From Candidatus Shapirobacteria bacterium CG2_30_35_20 (GTDB lineage: Bacteria; Patescibacteriota; Microgenomatia; UBA12405): a stretch of DNA of 37,692 nucleotides. The notes under the pieces were generated by a model. The model did not search any database. It worked only from the letters and a program-made list of their open reading frames with translations, and was not told where the DNA came from. A program made the position numbers and the translations under genes. The stretch's first letter is position 1, and each line of letters opens with the position of its first letter. Of the stretch, positions 6,897-36,139 are shown one piece after another. The stretch lies in contig MNZO01000020.1 of the NCBI GenBank assembly GCA_001873665.1, positions 1-37,692 on the forward strand. The letters are read 5' to 3'.

Positions 6897-8101
6897 CCAA
6901 AAGAAATATTTTAATGGTCACCCCCTATATTCCCAGATTAGAACAATCGGGCGGTCAGCGTCATTCGTTTTTTACCCTAAAATATTTATCCAAAACCAAC
7001 AATGTTACCTTAATTTGTTATAGCCGCAACGAGGATGGGCTACAAGAAGTAAAACAATATTGTCAAAAAGTAATTATTGTCAAAAGATCCACCACCTGGA
7101 GTCTGTCAAACATTTTGTCAACTGGATTTGGAATCTATCCATTTTTACTGGTAAATTACATTAACAAAGAATTTCGTCACGCCATTGAGACAGAAATAAA
7201 AAATGGCAAGTTTGACATCATCCATTGTGATTGTCTCTATCCTATGGCTAATATTCCCAAGACTAATATTCCGACGATTCTGGTTGATGTCACTATCGAG
7301 TATGCCATTTATCAGCATTTTGCCGATTCTCTTACTAGCTGGCAAAAAATTTTACGACCACTACTCATGGTTGATGTCCTCAAACTCAAATATTGGGAAA
7401 CCAAATATTGGCGTGAAACTGATACCGTTATTATGTTTAGCCACGAAGACCAAGAATTTGTTGCCAAAGTTACCGGACGCAAGGACATTCAAATTTTTGA
7501 AGATGCGGTTGACCCAGAATATTTTAATTTACCTAGAAAAACAGAAAAATCAAAACACCCTACCGTCCTCTTCGGTTGCTCCAACATGAAGTGGATGCAA
7601 AATCGCGAGTCAGTTGATCTAATATTAAGAGACTATTGGCCACAAATTAAAAAACGGTATCCCACTTCTCAATTACTTATAATTGGACGCAATGCTCCCG
7701 AAATTTTTGGCAAATACAATTCTGATAGTATCATCGTCGCCGAAGCCGACACCAACGGACCTCACAATCCTCAATACTATTACGAATACAGTTGGATATT
7801 ACTTGCTCCTATGGGTAGCGGAGGAGGAACTCGCAATAAATTTTTAGAAGGTATGACCTTTGGTCTACCAGTTATCACCAACCCCGAAGGGGGGATGGGC
7901 AATATAAAAATTAAAAATTATCATCATGCCATTGTCTGTCCTAAAAAAGAAATTTTAAAAAATATATACAAATTGTTTGACAACCCAAAATATCGACAAT
8001 CAATGGGACAAACCGCCAGTGAATTAATAAAAAACAATTATTCTTTTGATCAAAGTGTCAAAAAACTCAATCAAATCTATGACCAAAGCATCAAAAAATA
8101 A
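6893..8101 (+). CDS. Glycosyltransferase, GT4 family
   Basis: C-terminal GSGGGTRNKFLEGMTFGLPVITN motif and GT-B length. ATGA overlap with the upstream gene. Confidence 0.75.
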   Translation: MTKRNILMVTPYIPRLEQSGGQRHSFFTLKYLSKTNNVTLICYSRNEDGLQEVKQYCQKVIIVKRSTTWSLSNILSTGFGIYPFLLVNYINKEFRHAIETEIKNGKFDIIHCDCLYPMANIPKTNIPTILVDVTIEYAIYQHFADSLTSWQKILRPLLMVDVLKLKYWETKYWRETDTVIMFSHEDQEFVAKVTGRKDIQIFEDAVDPEYFNLPRKTEKSKHPTVLFGCSNMKWMQNRESVDLILRDYWPQIKKRYPTSQLLIIGRNAPEIFGKYNSDSIIVAEADTNGPHNPQYYYEYSWILLAPMGSGGGTRNKFLEGMTFGLPVITNPEGGMGNIKIKNYHHAIVCPKKEILKNIYKLFDNPKYRQSMGQTASELIKNNYSFDQSVKKLNQIYDQSIKK

Positions 8102-30987: not shown

Positions 30988-32082
30988 ATGGGATTAATAA
31001 AAACTCTTACCGGTCAATTCGCAAAGATCAAAGTTGTTGGTGTTGGAGGTGGTGGTAATAATGCCATCAATTCAATGATCAACGAAGACAACATCAAGGG
31101 TGTCGAGTTTGTCGCAGTTAATACCGATTCACAGGCGTTACTAAACTCTCTCGCCGATATTAAAATTCAAATTGGAGAAAAATTAACCAAAGGACTCGGG
31201 GCTGGCGGTGAACCACAAGTCGGACAACAAGCAGCCGAAGAATCACGAGAACGCATCAAAGAAGCTCTCACCGATACTGATATGCTTTTTATTACTGGTG
31301 GTATGGGTGGAGGAACATGTACTGGCGCTGCCCCAATTATTGGCGAAATTGCCAAAAAAGAATTAGGTATTTTAACTATTGCCGTTGTTACCAAGCCATT
31401 CTTATTTGAAGGTTCAAGGCGTATGAGTCGGGCCGAAGATGGCCTATCCCATCTTCGCCAATATGTTGATACTCTAATTGTCATTCCCAATCAAAAAGTC
31501 ATGGAAGTGGTCAACAACCAAGCCACGCTATTAGAAGCCTTTAAAATTGCCGATAATGTATTAACTAAAGGCACCAAAGCCATCGCCGATTTAATTACCA
31601 CCACCGGTTTAATAAATCTAGATTTTGCCGATATTAAATCGGTTATGGGCAATGCTGGTTCCGCCCTCATGGGTGTGGGTGAAGCTGAAGGTGAAGGACG
31701 TGCCCAAAAAGCCGTCGAATTGGCTATCGATTCTCCCTTAGTTGAGGCAAATATTGACGGTGCCCGAGGTGTGTTAATCAATATTAATGGTGGTCCTGAT
31801 ATTACCATGGCCGAAATCGAGCAAGCTGCCAAAACTATTACCGACCATGTTGCCCCCGATGCCAATATCATTTTTGGCGCTTCAATCGATTCAGAACTAT
31901 CCGGAAAAATAAAAGTTACCGTTATCGCTACTGGTTTTGATAATTCAAAAATTCATTATGCCAAACCCACCCAAGAACCACTACTATCAGGTGAATATAA
32001 AAATATTTTAGATAATCAAATTATTCCCGAAGGTCTGGACATCGAAACCGATTTCGACATCCCCGCCTTCCTTCGCAAATAG
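30988..32082 (+). CDS. ftsZ: Cell division GTPase FtsZ
   Basis: GVGGGGNNAIN, the tubulin signature GGMGGGTCTGAAP, and NLDFADIK. Confidence 0.97.
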   Translation: MGLIKTLTGQFAKIKVVGVGGGGNNAINSMINEDNIKGVEFVAVNTDSQALLNSLADIKIQIGEKLTKGLGAGGEPQVGQQAAEESRERIKEALTDTDMLFITGGMGGGTCTGAAPIIGEIAKKELGILTIAVVTKPFLFEGSRRMSRAEDGLSHLRQYVDTLIVIPNQKVMEVVNNQATLLEAFKIADNVLTKGTKAIADLITTTGLINLDFADIKSVMGNAGSALMGVGEAEGEGRAQKAVELAIDSPLVEANIDGARGVLININGGPDITMAEIEQAAKTITDHVAPDANIIFGASIDSELSGKIKVTVIATGFDNSKIHYAKPTQEPLLSGEYKNILDNQIIPEGLDIETDFDIPAFLRK

Positions 32083-32088
32083 TTTAAA

Positions 32089-32173
32089 TACGTCATTACG
32101 AGGAGCAATTACAACGGTGACGTGGTAATCTCGTTGAGATTTTATCAGCCTGACATTTTTCCCGTGATATAAT
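32089..32173 (+). repeat. Family B GC-rich dispersed repeat, copy 1 (core + hairpin + extended -10)
   Basis: tacgtcattacgaggagcaattacaacggtgacgtggtaatctcgttgagattttatcagcc...tgatataat. It is near-identical to copy 2 and inverted relative to copy 3. Confidence 0.85.
32165..32173 (+). promoter_or_regulatory. Extended -10 (TGaTATAAT), 6 nt upstream of the hicB ATG, carried by repeat copy 1
   Basis: tgatataat followed by ctattc then ATG 32180. Confidence 0.5.
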
Positions 32174-32179
32174 CTATTC

Positions 32180-32440
32180 ATGGTAAACCAATCATTTAAA
32201 ATCATTTTAGAGCAAGACGAAGATGGAGTTTTTGTGGCGTCAGTGCCAGCCGTACCCGGTTGTTTTGCTGAAGGTAAAACTTATGAAAAAGTAATGGAAA
32301 ATATCAAGGAAGCGTTAAGTCTGTGTCTTGATGTAGCCAACAAAGATAAAGACTATCACGCCAAAATTGATTGGTCTGATGGAAATAAAAGTAAATTTTT
32401 TGGCATAGTAAATTTAAATATGCCAATGTTAGCTTGCTAA
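32180..32440 (+). CDS. hicB: HicB-family antitoxin (UPF0150-type)
   Basis: FKIILEQDEDGVFVASVPAVPGCFAEGKTYEKVMENIKEAL is typical of the HicB N-domain. It lies directly upstream of hicA. Confidence 0.8.
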   Translation: MVNQSFKIILEQDEDGVFVASVPAVPGCFAEGKTYEKVMENIKEALSLCLDVANKDKDYHAKIDWSDGNKSKFFGIVNLNMPMLAC

Positions 32441-32442
32441 AA

Positions 32443-32673
32443 ATGCCCAGGTTACCAGTAATTAATCACAAAAAGTTAGAAAAGGTATTAAAAAATTTGG
32501 GATTTGAAGAAATAAGGCAAAAAGGTAGTCATGCTTTTTTCAAAAGATTTAGCGATGGCAAAACAACCGTAGTTCCCAAGCATAATGGTGATTTAGGAAA
32601 GGGATTATTGCGAAAAATCTTAAACGAAATTGATTTATCAATAGGGGAGTTAGAAAAAAGATTGAGAAAATAA
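32443..32673 (+). CDS. hicA: HicA-family mRNA interferase toxin
   Basis: KKLEKVLKNLGFEEIRQKGSHAFFKR..GKTTVVPKHNGDLGKGLLRKIL matches the HicA/YcfA pattern. I prefer ATG 32443 over the track's 32434. Confidence 0.9.
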   Translation: MPRLPVINHKKLEKVLKNLGFEEIRQKGSHAFFKRFSDGKTTVVPKHNGDLGKGLLRKILNEIDLSIGELEKRLRK

Positions 32674-32678
32674 AAAGA

Positions 32679-32760
32679 TACGTCATTGCGAGGAGCAAAT
32701 ATATAAATAGCGACGTGGTAATCTCGTTGAGATTTTATCAGCCTCAGTTTTTGGTATAAT
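32679..32760 (+). repeat. Family B repeat, copy 2
   Basis: tacgtcattgcgaggagcaaatatataaatagcgacgtggtaatctcgttgagattttatcagcc...tggtataat. Confidence 0.85.
32752..32760 (+). promoter_or_regulatory. Extended -10 (TGgTATAAT) carried by repeat copy 2
   Basis: tggtataat followed by 7 nt then ATG 32768, which opens a 20-codon ORF. Confidence 0.4.
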
Positions 32761-33049
32761 ACAACACATGGATAAGAGAGAGAGAGAAAAAAAACAATTG
32801 TTTCAAACGAAATTATCCACCCAACAATAACTATTCGCAAAGCTAACCCAAAAGAGGAACAAACCCGAGTTTCACAATCAATAGTAAAACTACCATTTTA
32901 TAAAACACACAATTATAAAATAATTTTACCCTTTATCCTGTCCAGAATTTAGTTGATAAAAATATATTTCAAATGGTTACTTTAGAAAACGCATGGCAAA
33001 AAATACCTGATGTTTTGACAGAATATGTAAAACAATATCCTCGATAGTC

Positions 33050-33108
33050 CTTCTCAATCCCCACGAGATTGCCACGTCGCTGTTGTAATTGCTCCTCGCA
33101 ATGACGTC
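33050..33108 (-). repeat. Family B repeat, copy 3 (inverted)
   Basis: The reverse complement of 33063-33107 is acgtcattgcgaggagcaattacaacagcgacgtggcaatctcgt. This matches 41 of 45 positions of copy 1 (32090-32134). Confidence 0.85.
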
Positions 33109-33119
33109 CTAGCGTGTTG

Positions 33120-33125
33120 TATAAT
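33120..33125 (+). promoter_or_regulatory. -10 box TATAAT, 6 nt upstream of ATG 33132
   Basis: Consensus hexamer. It has the same -10-to-ATG spacing as glyQS and hicB. Confidence 0.4.
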
Positions 33126-33131
33126 ACCCCA

Positions 33132-33164
33132 ATGTCACAGACCACAAAAATAATCATTACCTAG
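33132..33164 (+). promoter_or_regulatory. Candidate leaderless leader ORF MSQTTKIIIT upstream of ileS
   Basis: atg tca cag acc aca aaa ata atc att acc tag. It has three consecutive Ile codons and is followed by a hairpin and a terminator. Confidence 0.35.
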
Positions 33165-33188
33165 CCCGAGGGTTTTCCTCGGCTTTAT

Positions 33189-33213
33189 AAATCCGCCTAG
33201 GCGGATTTTTTTT
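33189..33213 (+). terminator. Rho-independent terminator-like hairpin + T8
   Basis: aaatccgc-ctag-gcggattt forms an 8-bp stem, followed by a run of T to 33213. Confidence 0.55.
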
Positions 33214-33266
33214 GCTGTTTTATAGCAAAATTTGGAGCAAAGCGACATAATTTTGTTTTAAAACGC

Positions 33267-33290
33267 AATCCGCCTTTGGCGGAGTTTTAT
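33267..33290 (+). terminator. Second copy of the same hairpin (weaker terminator-like element)
   Basis: aatccgcc-ttt-ggcgga followed by gttttat. Confidence 0.3.
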
Positions 33291-33292
33291 TA

Positions 33293-33298
33293 TATAAT
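33293..33298 (+). promoter_or_regulatory. -10 box TATAAT, 66 nt upstream of the ileS ATG
   Basis: Consensus hexamer within tatataat. The downstream leader is the AT-rich family A repeat. Confidence 0.3.
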
Positions 33299-33306
33299 CA
33301 AATATA

Positions 33307-33364
33307 AATTAAAAATTTAAAAATTGTAAATTTAAAATTGATTAAAAATTTTAAATTAAAAATT
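33307..33364 (+). repeat. Family A repeat, upstream of ileS
   Basis: aaattgtaaatttaaaatt is one mismatch from the 19-mer. It is followed by aaaattgattaaaaattttaaattaaaaatt. Confidence 0.75.
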
Positions 33365-36139
33365 ATGTCTTTCTTTACTGAACTTCCTCAAAACCCCAAC
33401 TTTCCACAATTAGAAAAAGAAATCATGGACTGGTGGACACAAAACGATATTTTAAATAAATATTTACACCGTAACGATAAATCAGAAAAAACCTTTTCTT
33501 TTATCGACGGCCCCATCACCGCCAACAACCCCATGGGTGTTCACCATGCCCTCGGTCGCACCCTCAAAGATGTTTTTCAACGTTTTAAAAATTTGCAAGG
33601 TTACGCCCAAAGATTTCAAAATGGTTTTGACTGTCAAGGCCTATGGGTCGAAGTTGAAGTTGAAAAAGACGCTGGTTTTAATTCCAAAAAAGATATTTTA
33701 GATTTTGGCCTTGATAAATTTACTACCGCTTGCATTGACCGAGTCAACAAATTTAGTTTAATTCAAACCGAACAATCAAAAAGATTAGGAATGTTTATGG
33801 ATTGGGAAAATTCATATTACACCAATTCCCAAAACAACAATCTCTATATTTGGCATTTTTTAAAAATTGTTCATCAAAAAGGTTGGCTCGAGCTTCGTAA
33901 AAGCGCTACCACTTGGTGTCCACGTTGTGAAACAGGGTTATCCCAACACGAACAAGCTGATGGATACAAAGACATTACTGACACCTCAGTTTATGTTTAT
34001 TTTAAATTAAAAGATAAAACCAATGAGTACGTTTTAGCCTGGACTACCACCCCATGGACTCTCACCGCCAATGTACTTCTGGCTATAAACACTGATTATC
34101 CCTATGTTAAGACAAAAATAGACGATAAAATCGTTTACCTTGCCAAAGAAGCGGCCACTAGACTAGGCCTGACTGATTATCAAACAATTGATGTCACCAC
34201 ATTATTAAATTTAAAATACGAATCATTATTTGATTTACCAAATCAAAAAAACATAAAACATTTTATTACCGATTGGAAAGAAGTAACACCACAGGAGGGG
34301 ACTGGTGTCGTTCACATCGCCCCTGGTTGTGGCCAAGAAGATTACGAACTTGGCAAAAAATTAGGTGTTCCCATGCCCTCTCCATTAAACGAGCAAGGTC
34401 ATTTTATAGATAATTACGGGGAATTTACTGGTAAATATGCTCATGGAGTCAAAGAATTGGTTTTTGAAAAACTAAAACAAGCCGGTGCTTTTTTTAAAAC
34501 TGAAGATATTATTCATCGCTATCCCCATTGTTGGCGTTGTAAAACCAAATGTTTATTTCGACTCGAAAATAGTTGGTATATAAAAACTGATGAAATCAGA
34601 CCTCTAATGAAAGCTGCGACTGCCAAAATCGAATGGCATCCCAAGTTCGTCAGTTCCCGAATGCAAAATTGGCTCGATTCTATGGACGACTGGATGATAA
34701 GTCGCTCCCGCTATTATGGTCTAGCCCTCCCTTTTTATAAATGTGAATGCGGTGAATTAACCGTTATCGGTTCTCTTGAGGAATTAAAAGAAAAATCTAT
34801 CAATCCTAAGCAAGTCGAAAGATTAACTTCTCTTCATCGCCCATGGATAGACACCATCAAAATAAAATGCCCTAAATGTGGCCAAATTATCTCTCGTATC
34901 CCAGAAGTCGGGGATTGTTGGCTCGATGCCGGAGTAGTTCCCTTTTCCACCTTAAAATATTTAACTGACAAAAGCTATTGGAAAAAATGGTTCCCCGCTG
35001 ATTTAGTTTTGGAAAATACTGAACAAGTTCGACTTTGGTTTTACTCAATGTTATTTTTTGGAGTTACTCTCAAAAACACCATTCCTTACAAAGCAGTTGT
35101 TACTCATGGTGAAGTTCGCGATCAAAAAGGAGAACGTATCTCAAAAACCAAAAAGAATGGCATACCCTACAACGAAGCCGTAGAAACAATGTCCGCTGAT
35201 GCCATGCGCTGGCTATATTGTTTACAAAAACCATCATCTAATGTCGATTTTGGATACGAAATCACAAACGGAGTTAATCGCGAATATATTTTATTATTAT
35301 GGAACACCTACCGCTTCTTCACCCAGCACGCAAACTTAGAGAATTGGAATGGTCCTGAAAACACGTCATTGCCAGGAGGCTCTGCGACGAAGCAATCTCG
35401 TTCGGGATCGATTATGGACTCATGGATTCTGTCTCGTCTTAATTCTACTATTGAAATAGTCACCAAAGACCTAAATCATTTTGGCACCTCAAATGCCACA
35501 AAAGCCATCCAAAATTTTGTGACTGATTTATCCACCTGGTACATCCGCCGCAATCGAGATCGAACTGATAATTTTGAATTACTTTACAAAATATTTACTA
35601 AACTATCAGTTATAATTTCACCATTTACCCCATTTTTAGGTGAAATTTTACACAAAAATTTGACCACCAATACAGAAACTGTCAATCTTGAAAATTGGCC
35701 CAAAGTCAATAAATCCCAAATAGACAAAGGATTAGAATCTCAAATGATTAACGTTCGAAAAATTTGTCAAGATATTCATGCTGCTCGTCAATTGGCCAAT
35801 TTAAAAATCCGCCAACCCTTATCATCAGCTACTATTACCCAAAAACTCAACCATGAATTACTCGAGGTTATAAAAGATGAAACAAATATCAAAAATATTT
35901 CTATCGGTAACAATTTCTCTCTGGAAACCAAACTCAATCCAGAATTAATTGCCGAGGGTGAATATCGTGATTTTATTCGTAGTATTCAAGTTTTACGCAA
36001 AAATCAAGGATTCCAAATCAAAGATAAAATCAACATCGTCGCCCCCAACTGGCCCGTCACTTTTAAATCAGAAATATTATCAAGAACCTTAGCTATTTCA
36101 ATTAAAAAAGGCGATATTCTTACTATTACCAAAGCTTAA
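33365..36139 (+). CDS. ileS: Isoleucine--tRNA ligase
   Basis: The N-terminus PNFPQLEKEIMDWW resembles Thermus-type IleRS. HIGH-like NPMGVHHALGR, NGFDCQGLWVEVEVEK, KMSKS-like RISKTKKNG, and several Cys-pair zinc knuckles are present. ATG 33365; the track's TTG 33338 lies inside a repeat. Confidence 0.85.
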   Translation: MSFFTELPQNPNFPQLEKEIMDWWTQNDILNKYLHRNDKSEKTFSFIDGPITANNPMGVHHALGRTLKDVFQRFKNLQGYAQRFQNGFDCQGLWVEVEVEKDAGFNSKKDILDFGLDKFTTACIDRVNKFSLIQTEQSKRLGMFMDWENSYYTNSQNNNLYIWHFLKIVHQKGWLELRKSATTWCPRCETGLSQHEQADGYKDITDTSVYVYFKLKDKTNEYVLAWTTTPWTLTANVLLAINTDYPYVKTKIDDKIVYLAKEAATRLGLTDYQTIDVTTLLNLKYESLFDLPNQKNIKHFITDWKEVTPQEGTGVVHIAPGCGQEDYELGKKLGVPMPSPLNEQGHFIDNYGEFTGKYAHGVKELVFEKLKQAGAFFKTEDIIHRYPHCWRCKTKCLFRLENSWYIKTDEIRPLMKAATAKIEWHPKFVSSRMQNWLDSMDDWMISRSRYYGLALPFYKCECGELTVIGSLEELKEKSINPKQVERLTSLHRPWIDTIKIKCPKCGQIISRIPEVGDCWLDAGVVPFSTLKYLTDKSYWKKWFPADLVLENTEQVRLWFYSMLFFGVTLKNTIPYKAVVTHGEVRDQKGERISKTKKNGIPYNEAVETMSADAMRWLYCLQKPSSNVDFGYEITNGVNREYILLLWNTYRFFTQHANLENWNGPENTSLPGGSATKQSRSGSIMDSWILSRLNSTIEIVTKDLNHFGTSNATKAIQNFVTDLSTWYIRRNRDRTDNFELLYKIFTKLSVIISPFTPFLGEILHKNLTTNTETVNLENWPKVNKSQIDKGLESQMINVRKICQDIHAARQLANLKIRQPLSSATITQKLNHELLEVIKDETNIKNISIGNNFSLETKLNPELIAEGEYRDFIRSIQVLRKNQGFQIKDKINIVAPNWPVTFKSEILSRTLAISIKKGDILTITKA
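35363..35402 (+). repeat. Family B repeat, short copy in frame inside ileS
   Basis: acgtcattgccaggaggctctgcgacgaagcaatctcgtt shares both arms (acgtcattgc.agga / gcgacg..gcaatctcgtt) with copies 1-3. It is translated as TSLPGGSATKQSR. Confidence 0.7.

Follow-up and report, generated by a model that had tools for sequence, protein, structure and literature searches.

How does a toxin-antitoxin gene pair come to lie between two essential genes, bracketed by inverted copies of a short repeat? The question is raised by a segment of about 1 kilobase (kb) that separates ftsZ from ileS in Candidatus Shapirobacteria bacterium CG2_30_35_20. The window analysed here, 37,692 nucleotides (nt) long, is contig C21 of assembly G000, which comprises 568 kb in 52 contigs, with 35% G+C and 83% completeness. 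A sequence-only reading of the window had found in the segment a hicB-hicA pair, three repeat copies (two direct, one inverted) and some 290 nt of apparently non-coding DNA. It had seen no transposase, integrase or target-site duplication, and had viewed the whole either as a non-autonomous 1018-bp cassette, resembling a miniature inverted-repeat transposable element (MITE) or delivered by recombination, or as two nested insertions. The present analysis bears out this inventory, including the absence of any transposase or integrase gene from the segment. Rather than a new transposon, the segment is a fairly commonplace instance of an already described repeat class, with a structural twist. The explanation that we favour, and hold to be rather probable, is that the partners of a repeat doublet, sited in a recombination hot spot, were separated by DNA acquired in two or more steps.

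Filled and empty sites between ftsZ and ileS

Comparison of the ftsZ-ileS junction in related genomes, suggested in the sequence-only reading as a check, revealed empty sites. In all 19 genus relatives with a readable spacer, ileS follows ftsZ on one contig. Eight of these are empty, with a gap of only 18-37 nt, and in seven further relatives the gap holds nothing but an ileS leader of about 100 nt. Different cargo was found elsewhere: a dCTP-deaminase-like gene in G003, a 212-residue open reading frame (ORF) in G018 and, in G007 (FtsZ 94% identical), a frameshifted pseudogene accompanied by a 99-residue ORF, without arms. The G007 pseudogene resembles the tyrosine transposases (RAYTs) associated with repetitive extragenic palindromes (REPs). 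Finally, the gap in G020 (FtsZ 90% identical) contains an empty 107-nt repeat doublet that begins 7 nt past the stop codon of ftsZ and leaves about 10 nt between its end and the leader's -10 box upstream of ileS. Its outer boundaries are those of the segment under study and its arms are of other subtypes, one of them occupying the position of our right arm. The occurrence of empty or differently filled sites between the same conserved flanks identifies the gap as a hot spot for accessory DNA, and the ~1-kb segment as accessory, as the sequence-only reading had supposed. No target-site duplication was apparent at the segment (flanks tttaaat versus cctagcg) upon comparison with the empty sites in G013 and G020.

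Sites of this kind are known from Neisseria as minimal mobile elements, in which variable sites are flanked by dRS3 repeats. The likeness extends to the fixed site between conserved genes, the different whole-gene cassettes, the repeats at the borders and the lack of a mobility gene inside. The present case departs from them in that species of a genus, not strains, are compared, and in that exchange through transformation is presumed.

Both hicBA and the ~290-nt stretch are single-copy in this genome. Within the order, hicA occurs in only 6 of 132 genomes, the best identity being 46%. A large protein collection contained six homologues, the closest of which (HicA 92% identical) is encoded on a 1.66-kb contig, L045, from sample SRR22388055. 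This contig aligns with the window at 84% identity over positions 32119-32674, a stretch that takes in the last part of the arm with its tail, the -10 box and both hic genes, and again at 86% over the ileS leader. Its hicBA pair is preceded by a homologue of the left repeat unit (unit 1). Between hicBA and the leader, L045 carries a gene for a 307-residue APH-like kinase; the second repeat unit, the ~290-nt stretch and the right arm are all missing. Because L045 joins left arm, hicBA and ileS leader without a right arm, the alignment indicates that hicBA and the left unit are common to two lineages at this locus and that the right half is specific to this genome. Judged from the same alignment, the right arm is dispensable. 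Arms are absent around the hicA loci that are 78-84% identical, which lie in toxin-antitoxin islands or beside ftsH, and from the five hicA loci found in the order.

A MITE or composite cargo transposon would likewise show inverted terminal copies around a short segment lacking a transposase. Against such an element stand the missing target-site duplication, arms that are not specific to the segment (see below), the segment's single copy and the missing right arm in the closest relative. Since hicBA is single-copy and its closest relative has no right arm, the 1018-bp unit does not behave as a discrete MITE-like transposon. The alternative offered in the sequence-only reading, nested or successive insertions, fares better, L045 having the left arm and hicBA without the right arm.

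A dispersed repeat family provides the arms

The two outer arms (arm 1, 32090-32134, plus strand; arm 3, 33063-33107, minus strand) differ at 4 of 45 positions, just as first read, and their inverted match reaches 52 nt at 88% identity. The direct copy, at 32678-32752, matches in two blocks (24 nt at 92% and 41 nt at 93%), with a centre between them that is 3 nt longer. Half-motifs of the repeat produced 3-4 matches in the window where 0.01-0.02 were expected, a number reached by none of 100 shuffles. All these copies are members of a family with the layout ACGTCATTGCGAG, a variable centre that in some copies is a hairpin, GCAATCTCG and a tail of about 18 nt, of which a loose pattern search of the assembly counted 37 copies in 568 kb. 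The consensus reads (t)ACGTCATTGCGAG, a variable centre of 4-40 nt, (GACG)WRGCAATCTCG and the tail GTTGGAATTTAGAAAGCC. Where the centre forms a clean hairpin, it does so with compensating changes (for example GAAATTTT/AAAATTTC, GTCCC/GGGAC, GCATTCGCC/GGCGAATGC). About 30 of the 37 copies start with (A)CGTC and the remainder with CATC or similar variants. Eight pairs are arranged as doublets of about 110 nt, their CGTC ends facing outward and their tails forming a central palindrome. The exact core is present in 37 of the 132 genomes of the order and also in Dehalococcoidia, Nitrospirota, Alpha- and Gammaproteobacteria, Bacteroidota, Planctomycetota, Patescibacteria and others. A literature search by repeat sequence or encoded peptide returned nothing relevant.

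By sequence identity the arms of the segment are neither cassette-specific nor each other's special partners, since arm 3 is as near to unlinked copies (93% to those on C4 and C43) as to arm 1 (91%). The copy closest to arm 2 also lies on another contig (C4:6452, 94%). Membership in a 37-copy family and the equal closeness of arm 3 to unlinked copies are at odds with the idea that the arms are terminal inverted repeats belonging to one element. The derived GGTAAT present in both unit 1 and unit 2, together with their identical tails, suggests that they are related by local duplication or gene conversion.

At least 17 of the 37 copies begin 3-15 nt beyond a stop codon that has the same orientation, and unit 1, which begins 7 nt past the stop codon of ftsZ, fits the family rule of 5-15 nt behind such a codon. 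Tight, oriented placement of this sort is what one would expect if the repeats acted mainly on RNA, as 3'-end stabilisers, processing sites or weak terminators kept as operon insulators, and bracketed hicBA because they sit at gene ends. Also in line with an RNA role, several subtypes have strongly folding centres (copies with a clean hairpin fold far better than shuffles, z -3 to -5.6), and REPs in general are known to be situated mainly downstream of ORFs, their transcription being plausible (PMC3733652). However, arm 3 and the right arm of a second cassette, described below, have no co-oriented gene in front of them, some copies lie in frame inside ileS and other ORFs, and the distribution among close relatives is patchy. 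No T-run follows the repeat hairpins. The three arms of the segment, moreover, are all of a GGAG...GACG subtype that folds weakly as DNA (z -1.4 to -2.6), and single arms folded as RNA did no better than shuffles; on these two grounds the notion of single arms as strong hairpins was rejected. A function exerted mainly at the RNA level strikes us as quite improbable.

Between four and six copies lie inside ORFs, every one of them co-oriented with its ORF. One, overlooked in the sequence-only reading, is the fourth copy in the window and lies in frame inside ileS, where it adds about 8 residues (TSLPGGSATKQSRS); the extra residues are visible in an alignment with 22 relatives. In G008, G015 and G021 the same IleS loop has other versions of the repeat (VIASEAKQS and similar), and in G007 and G020 it has none. 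The loop of G013 may hold a decayed copy. Judging from this alignment, the loop would be either a recurrently hit site or that of an old polymorphic insertion.

A second dispersed repeat, AT-rich and about 60-80 nt long, lies just upstream of the ileS start (33285-33365; aaattgtaaatttaaaattgattaaaaattttaaattaaaaatt). Matches of 80-94% to it were found on C19 (several copies), C22, C30, C40 and C44, and in several relatives.

Repeat class, linked nucleases and a proposed route of gain

By its features the repeat is a variant member of the class that comprises the CGTC-tagged REPs and the NTS (Ssn-related) motifs. The term variant is used because the repeat fails the published degenerate pattern (see below) and has a different stem design. 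CGTC-tagged REPs, a superfamily described by Di Nocera, De Gregorio and Rocco in 2013 (PMC3733652), have a CGTC end and stems starting with A-T. They lie downstream of ORFs, form inverted dimers, occur as copies inside genes and have no dedicated transposase, and DNA is found inserted between dimer partners (PMC3733652). They are recognised by an unpaired CGTC (or TGTC/CCTC) end, a stem of 8-9 bp, a loop of 4-5 nt and a short CCA-like tail (PMC3733652). The repeat studied here has the 5' CGTC tag and a stem that begins with A-T pairs (ATTGC/GCAAT); it lies just downstream of ORFs, forms opposed dimers, often of unlike partners, and has in-frame genic copies; DNA is inserted between its dimer partners and it has no transposase of its own. 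It differs in that the stem is a 5-bp ATTGC/GCAAT around a centre of 4-40 nt, with a clear hairpin in some copies only, rather than 8-9 bp around a loop of 4-5 nt, and in that CTCG with a conserved extension of about 18 nt takes the place of the CCA tail. The host differs as well, being a tiny genome that, judged by its size, appears to be of the candidate-phyla-radiation type.

Small ssn genes, which encode GIY-YIG nucleases of the CDD family cd10448, are flanked by the Neisseria NTS (CGTCATTCCCGCGMAVGCGGGAATCYRG; CGTCATTCCCGCG...GCGGGAATCYRG) or by motifs related to it; SsnA cleaves DNA single strands beside the motif, and NTS-gene-NTS arrangements modulate transformation (PMC11893778, Nat Commun 2025). 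The present repeats have the same frame, CGTCAT(T-stem)...(stem-A)ATCYRG, and the same habit of bracketing genes as oriented hairpin repeats (NTS-gene-NTS). A further likeness, a small single-domain GIY-YIG gene flanked by repeats on both sides, is seen in relatives and not in this assembly, which has no nuclease of the flanked type. Integron attC sites and Xer/dif modules were dropped as candidates: the repeats do not resemble the sites known for them, not every copy has the same orientation, and the segment has no integrase.

Other genes are bracketed by the repeat as well. A second arm(+)-ORF-arm(-) insertion lies 5 kb downstream, just outside the window, between rpmA and parB (C21:37946-38651). 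It encloses a 181-residue ORF without Pfam match, and the segment is missing from all 22 genus relatives, with only about 15-25 nt at this place in G013 and G020. Compared with these two empty sites, the insertion shows no target-site duplication (flanks acgaac versus actaag). In each of the five cases fetched from relatives (G001, G078, G021, G008 and G081), copies of the repeat with outward-facing tags lie to either side of a GIY-YIG (PF01541) gene of about 96 residues, at distances of 2-25 nt; in G013, an arm pair surrounds a NUDIX gene. The repeat does, then, mark the boundaries of cassettes. A ubiquitous REP-like element unconnected with cassette boundaries is the outcome that the sequence-only reading had named as contrary to its interpretation, and this is half borne out: REP-like the arms are, in 37 copies here and in many phyla, yet the association with boundaries persists in the second arm-ORF-arm insertion, in the GIY-YIG arrangement (5/5) and once with NUDIX.

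The GIY-YIG proteins have sequence matches in the PDB only to UPF0213 (1zg2, E = 3.3e-10; 1ywl, E = 2.1e-4). A small GIY-YIG gene of this genome, for a 90-residue protein, is found at C32:10050-10319. Two others lie tight against tRNA genes (C28:2880-3310 and C47:8180-8470): the C28 gene is followed by a second copy of the 3' half of the tRNA, and the C47 gene is broken by two in-frame stop codons.

These bracketed genes admit another reading, in which the tags-outward arm pair is a general vehicle that moves gene cassettes in one piece. Its master form would be a ~430-nt arm-GIY-YIG nuclease-arm unit that moves empty doublets as well as cargo-swapped derivatives, the versions with hicBA, the 181-residue ORF or NUDIX being non-autonomous forms in which the nuclease gene was replaced. 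The nuclease would act in trans and insert the unit behind stop codons without target duplication. The position of the small GIY-YIG gene, 2-25 nt inside inverted, tags-outward arms in all five relatives, accords well with this idea, as do two genome-specific insertions that end at, or a few bases from, the outer ends of inverted arms. Cargo at the doublet centre, between the two half-spacers, and the lack of target-site duplication, as expected of single-strand mechanisms, speak for it too. But the closest relative's hicBA has the left arm without the right one, the arms of each pair belong to different or non-exclusive subtypes, no cargo cassette has a second genomic copy, and hicA is rare in the order. 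The cognate nuclease gene was not found in the assembly, and the Ssn enzymes described so far act as nucleases on single strands, restricting transformation, and are not known to be transposases (PMC11893778). We consider such a vehicle, including the action of the nuclease in trans, unlikely. If true, it would be a nuclease-driven counterpart of the REPIN/RAYT system (REPINs being hairpin-forming REP doublets), able to carry genes.

The REPIN/RAYT system itself offers a further candidate. The ~110-nt inverted doublets could fold into one long hairpin, and C26 encodes a RAYT-like tyrosine transposase that might move them as REPIN-like doublets. This 189-residue HUH/Y1 protein (C26:3670-4239) reaches 30.6 bits against PF01797 when two stretches are added up; its match to NF047646 (E = 9.3e-13) scores under the curated NCBIfam cut-off. 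A repeat doublet lies 870 nt downstream of its gene, and the pseudogene in the ftsZ-ileS gap of G007 is a frameshifted copy. The tag, however, is CGTC and not GTAG, the gene has no flanking repeats, and co-occurrence over the 132 genomes is weak, with PF01797 in 54% of repeat-bearing versus 42% of repeat-free genomes. G015, G124 and G129 appear repeat-rich without any PF01797 gene. On tag, flanking and co-occurrence RAYT was rejected as the driver, and we find its involvement very hard to credit. The RAYT-like gene (also L017:1327-1896) contains a perfect palindrome, GTAGAGACGCACCATGGCGCGTCTCTAC, encoding VETHHGASL, and the same palindrome is found in the frameshifted G007 copy. The rpmA-parB gap of G007 has a GTAG-tagged hairpin.

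Under the explanation preferred here, stepwise gain of DNA within a doublet, the repeat would in this lineage land only a few bases beyond a stop codon, either alone or as a ~110-nt doublet whose CGTC tags point outward. In a first step, shared with a relative, unit 1, the promoter and hicBA would have arrived; in a second, specific to this genome, unit 2, the ~290-nt remnant and unit 3. Gain and loss would occur by recombination, either between repeat copies or, once DNA has been taken up, as homologous exchange by way of the conserved flanks, and nicking of single strands at the repeat by an Ssn-type GIY-YIG enzyme may help. One-piece transposition of the whole segment would not be required.

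Several points weigh against this explanation. On its left side L045 breaks off within the arm and gives no proof that hicBA follows ftsZ there. The three arms are of a weakly pairing subtype. The repeat-flanked nuclease subfamily was not found in this 83%-complete assembly, in which the nearest GIY-YIG gene is 43-48% identical and not repeat-flanked. No unit among the 37 is matched by the published SRM string, HGTCWYN(0-2)YYVSBRHN(0-5)WNVSBRGN(0-2)RNCYNB. A vehicle moving as one unit would also be compatible with the two inverted pairs that bear cargo in this genome, taken together with the arm-nuclease-arm and arm-NUDIX-arm arrangements of relatives. Lastly, both the recombination route and any part played by nicking are steps that we infer from comparing sequences.

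The SRM string has one match in the genome, on contig C1, against 0-2 in shuffled genomes. This match is a true NTS-type motif, CGTCATTCCCGCAAAAGCGGGAATCCAC, at about position 6997 on the minus strand.

Genes and signals of the segment

The features of the locus are listed in Table 1.

Table 1. Features between and including ftsZ and ileS, in window coordinates
Feature	Position	Strand	Remarks
ftsZ	30988..32082	+	PF00091 + PF12327; conserved left flank
Repeat unit 1	32090..32151	+	Arm ACGTCATTACGAG...GTAATCTCG + tail GTTGAGATTTTATCAGCCT
Extended -10 box TGATATAAT	32165..32173	+	Read from sequence; 6 nt before hicB ATG
hicB antitoxin, short form, 86 residues	32180..32440	+	PF15919, E = 2.9e-9
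hicA toxin, 76 residues from ATG	32443..32673	+	PF07927, E = 1.6e-18
Repeat unit 2	32680..32745	+	Direct relative to unit 1; starts 6 nt after hicA stop
TGGTATAAT box, then leaderless-looking ATG (32769) and 20-codon ORF MDKREREKKQLFQTKLSTQQ with stop	32753..32831	+	Read from sequence
~290 nt without detectable function	32761..33046	.	ORF, Rfam, fold and similarity searches
Repeat unit 3	33047..33107	-	Inverted; CGTC tag outward, toward ileS
ileS leader, true right flank	33120..33216	+	TATAAT, leader peptide, two hairpins
ileS	33365..36139	+	PF00133 + PF08264; conserved right flank
In-frame repeat copy inside ileS	35363..35400	+	Encodes TSLPGGSATKQSRS; variable IleS loop

Adjacent small PF15919 and PF07927 genes, with hicB upstream and hicA starting 2 nt after the hicB stop codon, make up a HicAB type II system, and the pair would work as an ordinary HicA mRNA-interferase with its HicB antitoxin. 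HicA has a GSH motif, which we take to bear the catalytic His. In HicB a Pfam search detected no DNA-binding domain of the C-terminal kind that serves autoregulation in HicAB type II systems; the protein is also 86 residues long in the closest homologues (HicA 84-92% identical), and it has 113 residues in more distant ones (HicA 78-79%). The extended -10 box upstream of hicB has a counterpart in L045 at the same position (TGCTATAAT). It was not listed by a consensus promoter scan, which requires a -35 box. The location of the box suggests that the hicBA transcript is leaderless and expressed from its own -10 box. The TGGTATAAT box and 20-codon ORF that follow unit 2 repeat the arrangement found upstream of hicB, and this ORF is possibly the decayed start of an earlier cargo gene.

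No sense-strand ORF of at least 40 residues was found in the ~290-nt stretch (32761-33050). ORFs overlapping it are only antisense, one at 32529-32840 running back through unit 2 and hicA and one at 32969-33157 through arm 3. The stretch matched nothing in Rfam at E <= 1, gave no signal of folding (z = 0.16) and, in blastn and tblastx searches against the genome and all fetched loci, showed no similarity. The last result led us to reject an origin from the kinase-like gene of L045 or from other fetched cargo. Rfam gave no match over the arms; only two weak sub-threshold matches were returned, both in the ileS leader region. The leader's -10 box follows the end of unit 3 at a distance of 12 nt.

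In three places of the segment and its right flank a -10 box lies 6-7 nt before an ATG, with no room for a ribosome-binding site: before hicB (32165-32182), before the 20-codon ORF (32753-32771) and in the ileS leader (33120-33134). Relatives likewise have a -10 box immediately before ileS, among them the eight without an ileS leader. Leaderless transcripts may, from this spacing, be common in the genus.

The ileS leader is a candidate attenuator. Its TATAAT (33120-33125) precedes a 10-codon ORF with its stop codon (33132-33164) encoding MSQTTKIIIT, in which three consecutive Ile codons (ATA ATC ATT) occur. A hairpin at 33164-33183 overlaps the stop codon of this ORF, and a terminator hairpin at 33189-33208 is followed by a T-run to 33216. 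The same layout, always with a peptide ending in I-I-I-x, is found in 11 of the 19 genus relatives and in L045; the letters of the hairpins vary and their pairing is kept.

A gene that lies between inverted repeats is not thereby shown to belong to a transposon; at this locus the repeats are copies of a widespread class. The CGTC-REP/Ssn-type class, with its linked small GIY-YIG genes, is hereby extended to very small, candidate-phyla-radiation-like genomes, and a structural variant is documented that the published search pattern misses. The gap between the two essential genes, filled in some genomes, empty in some and holding other DNA in the rest, could serve for testing whether toxin-antitoxin pairs and other accessory genes are gained and lost with the help of such repeats.

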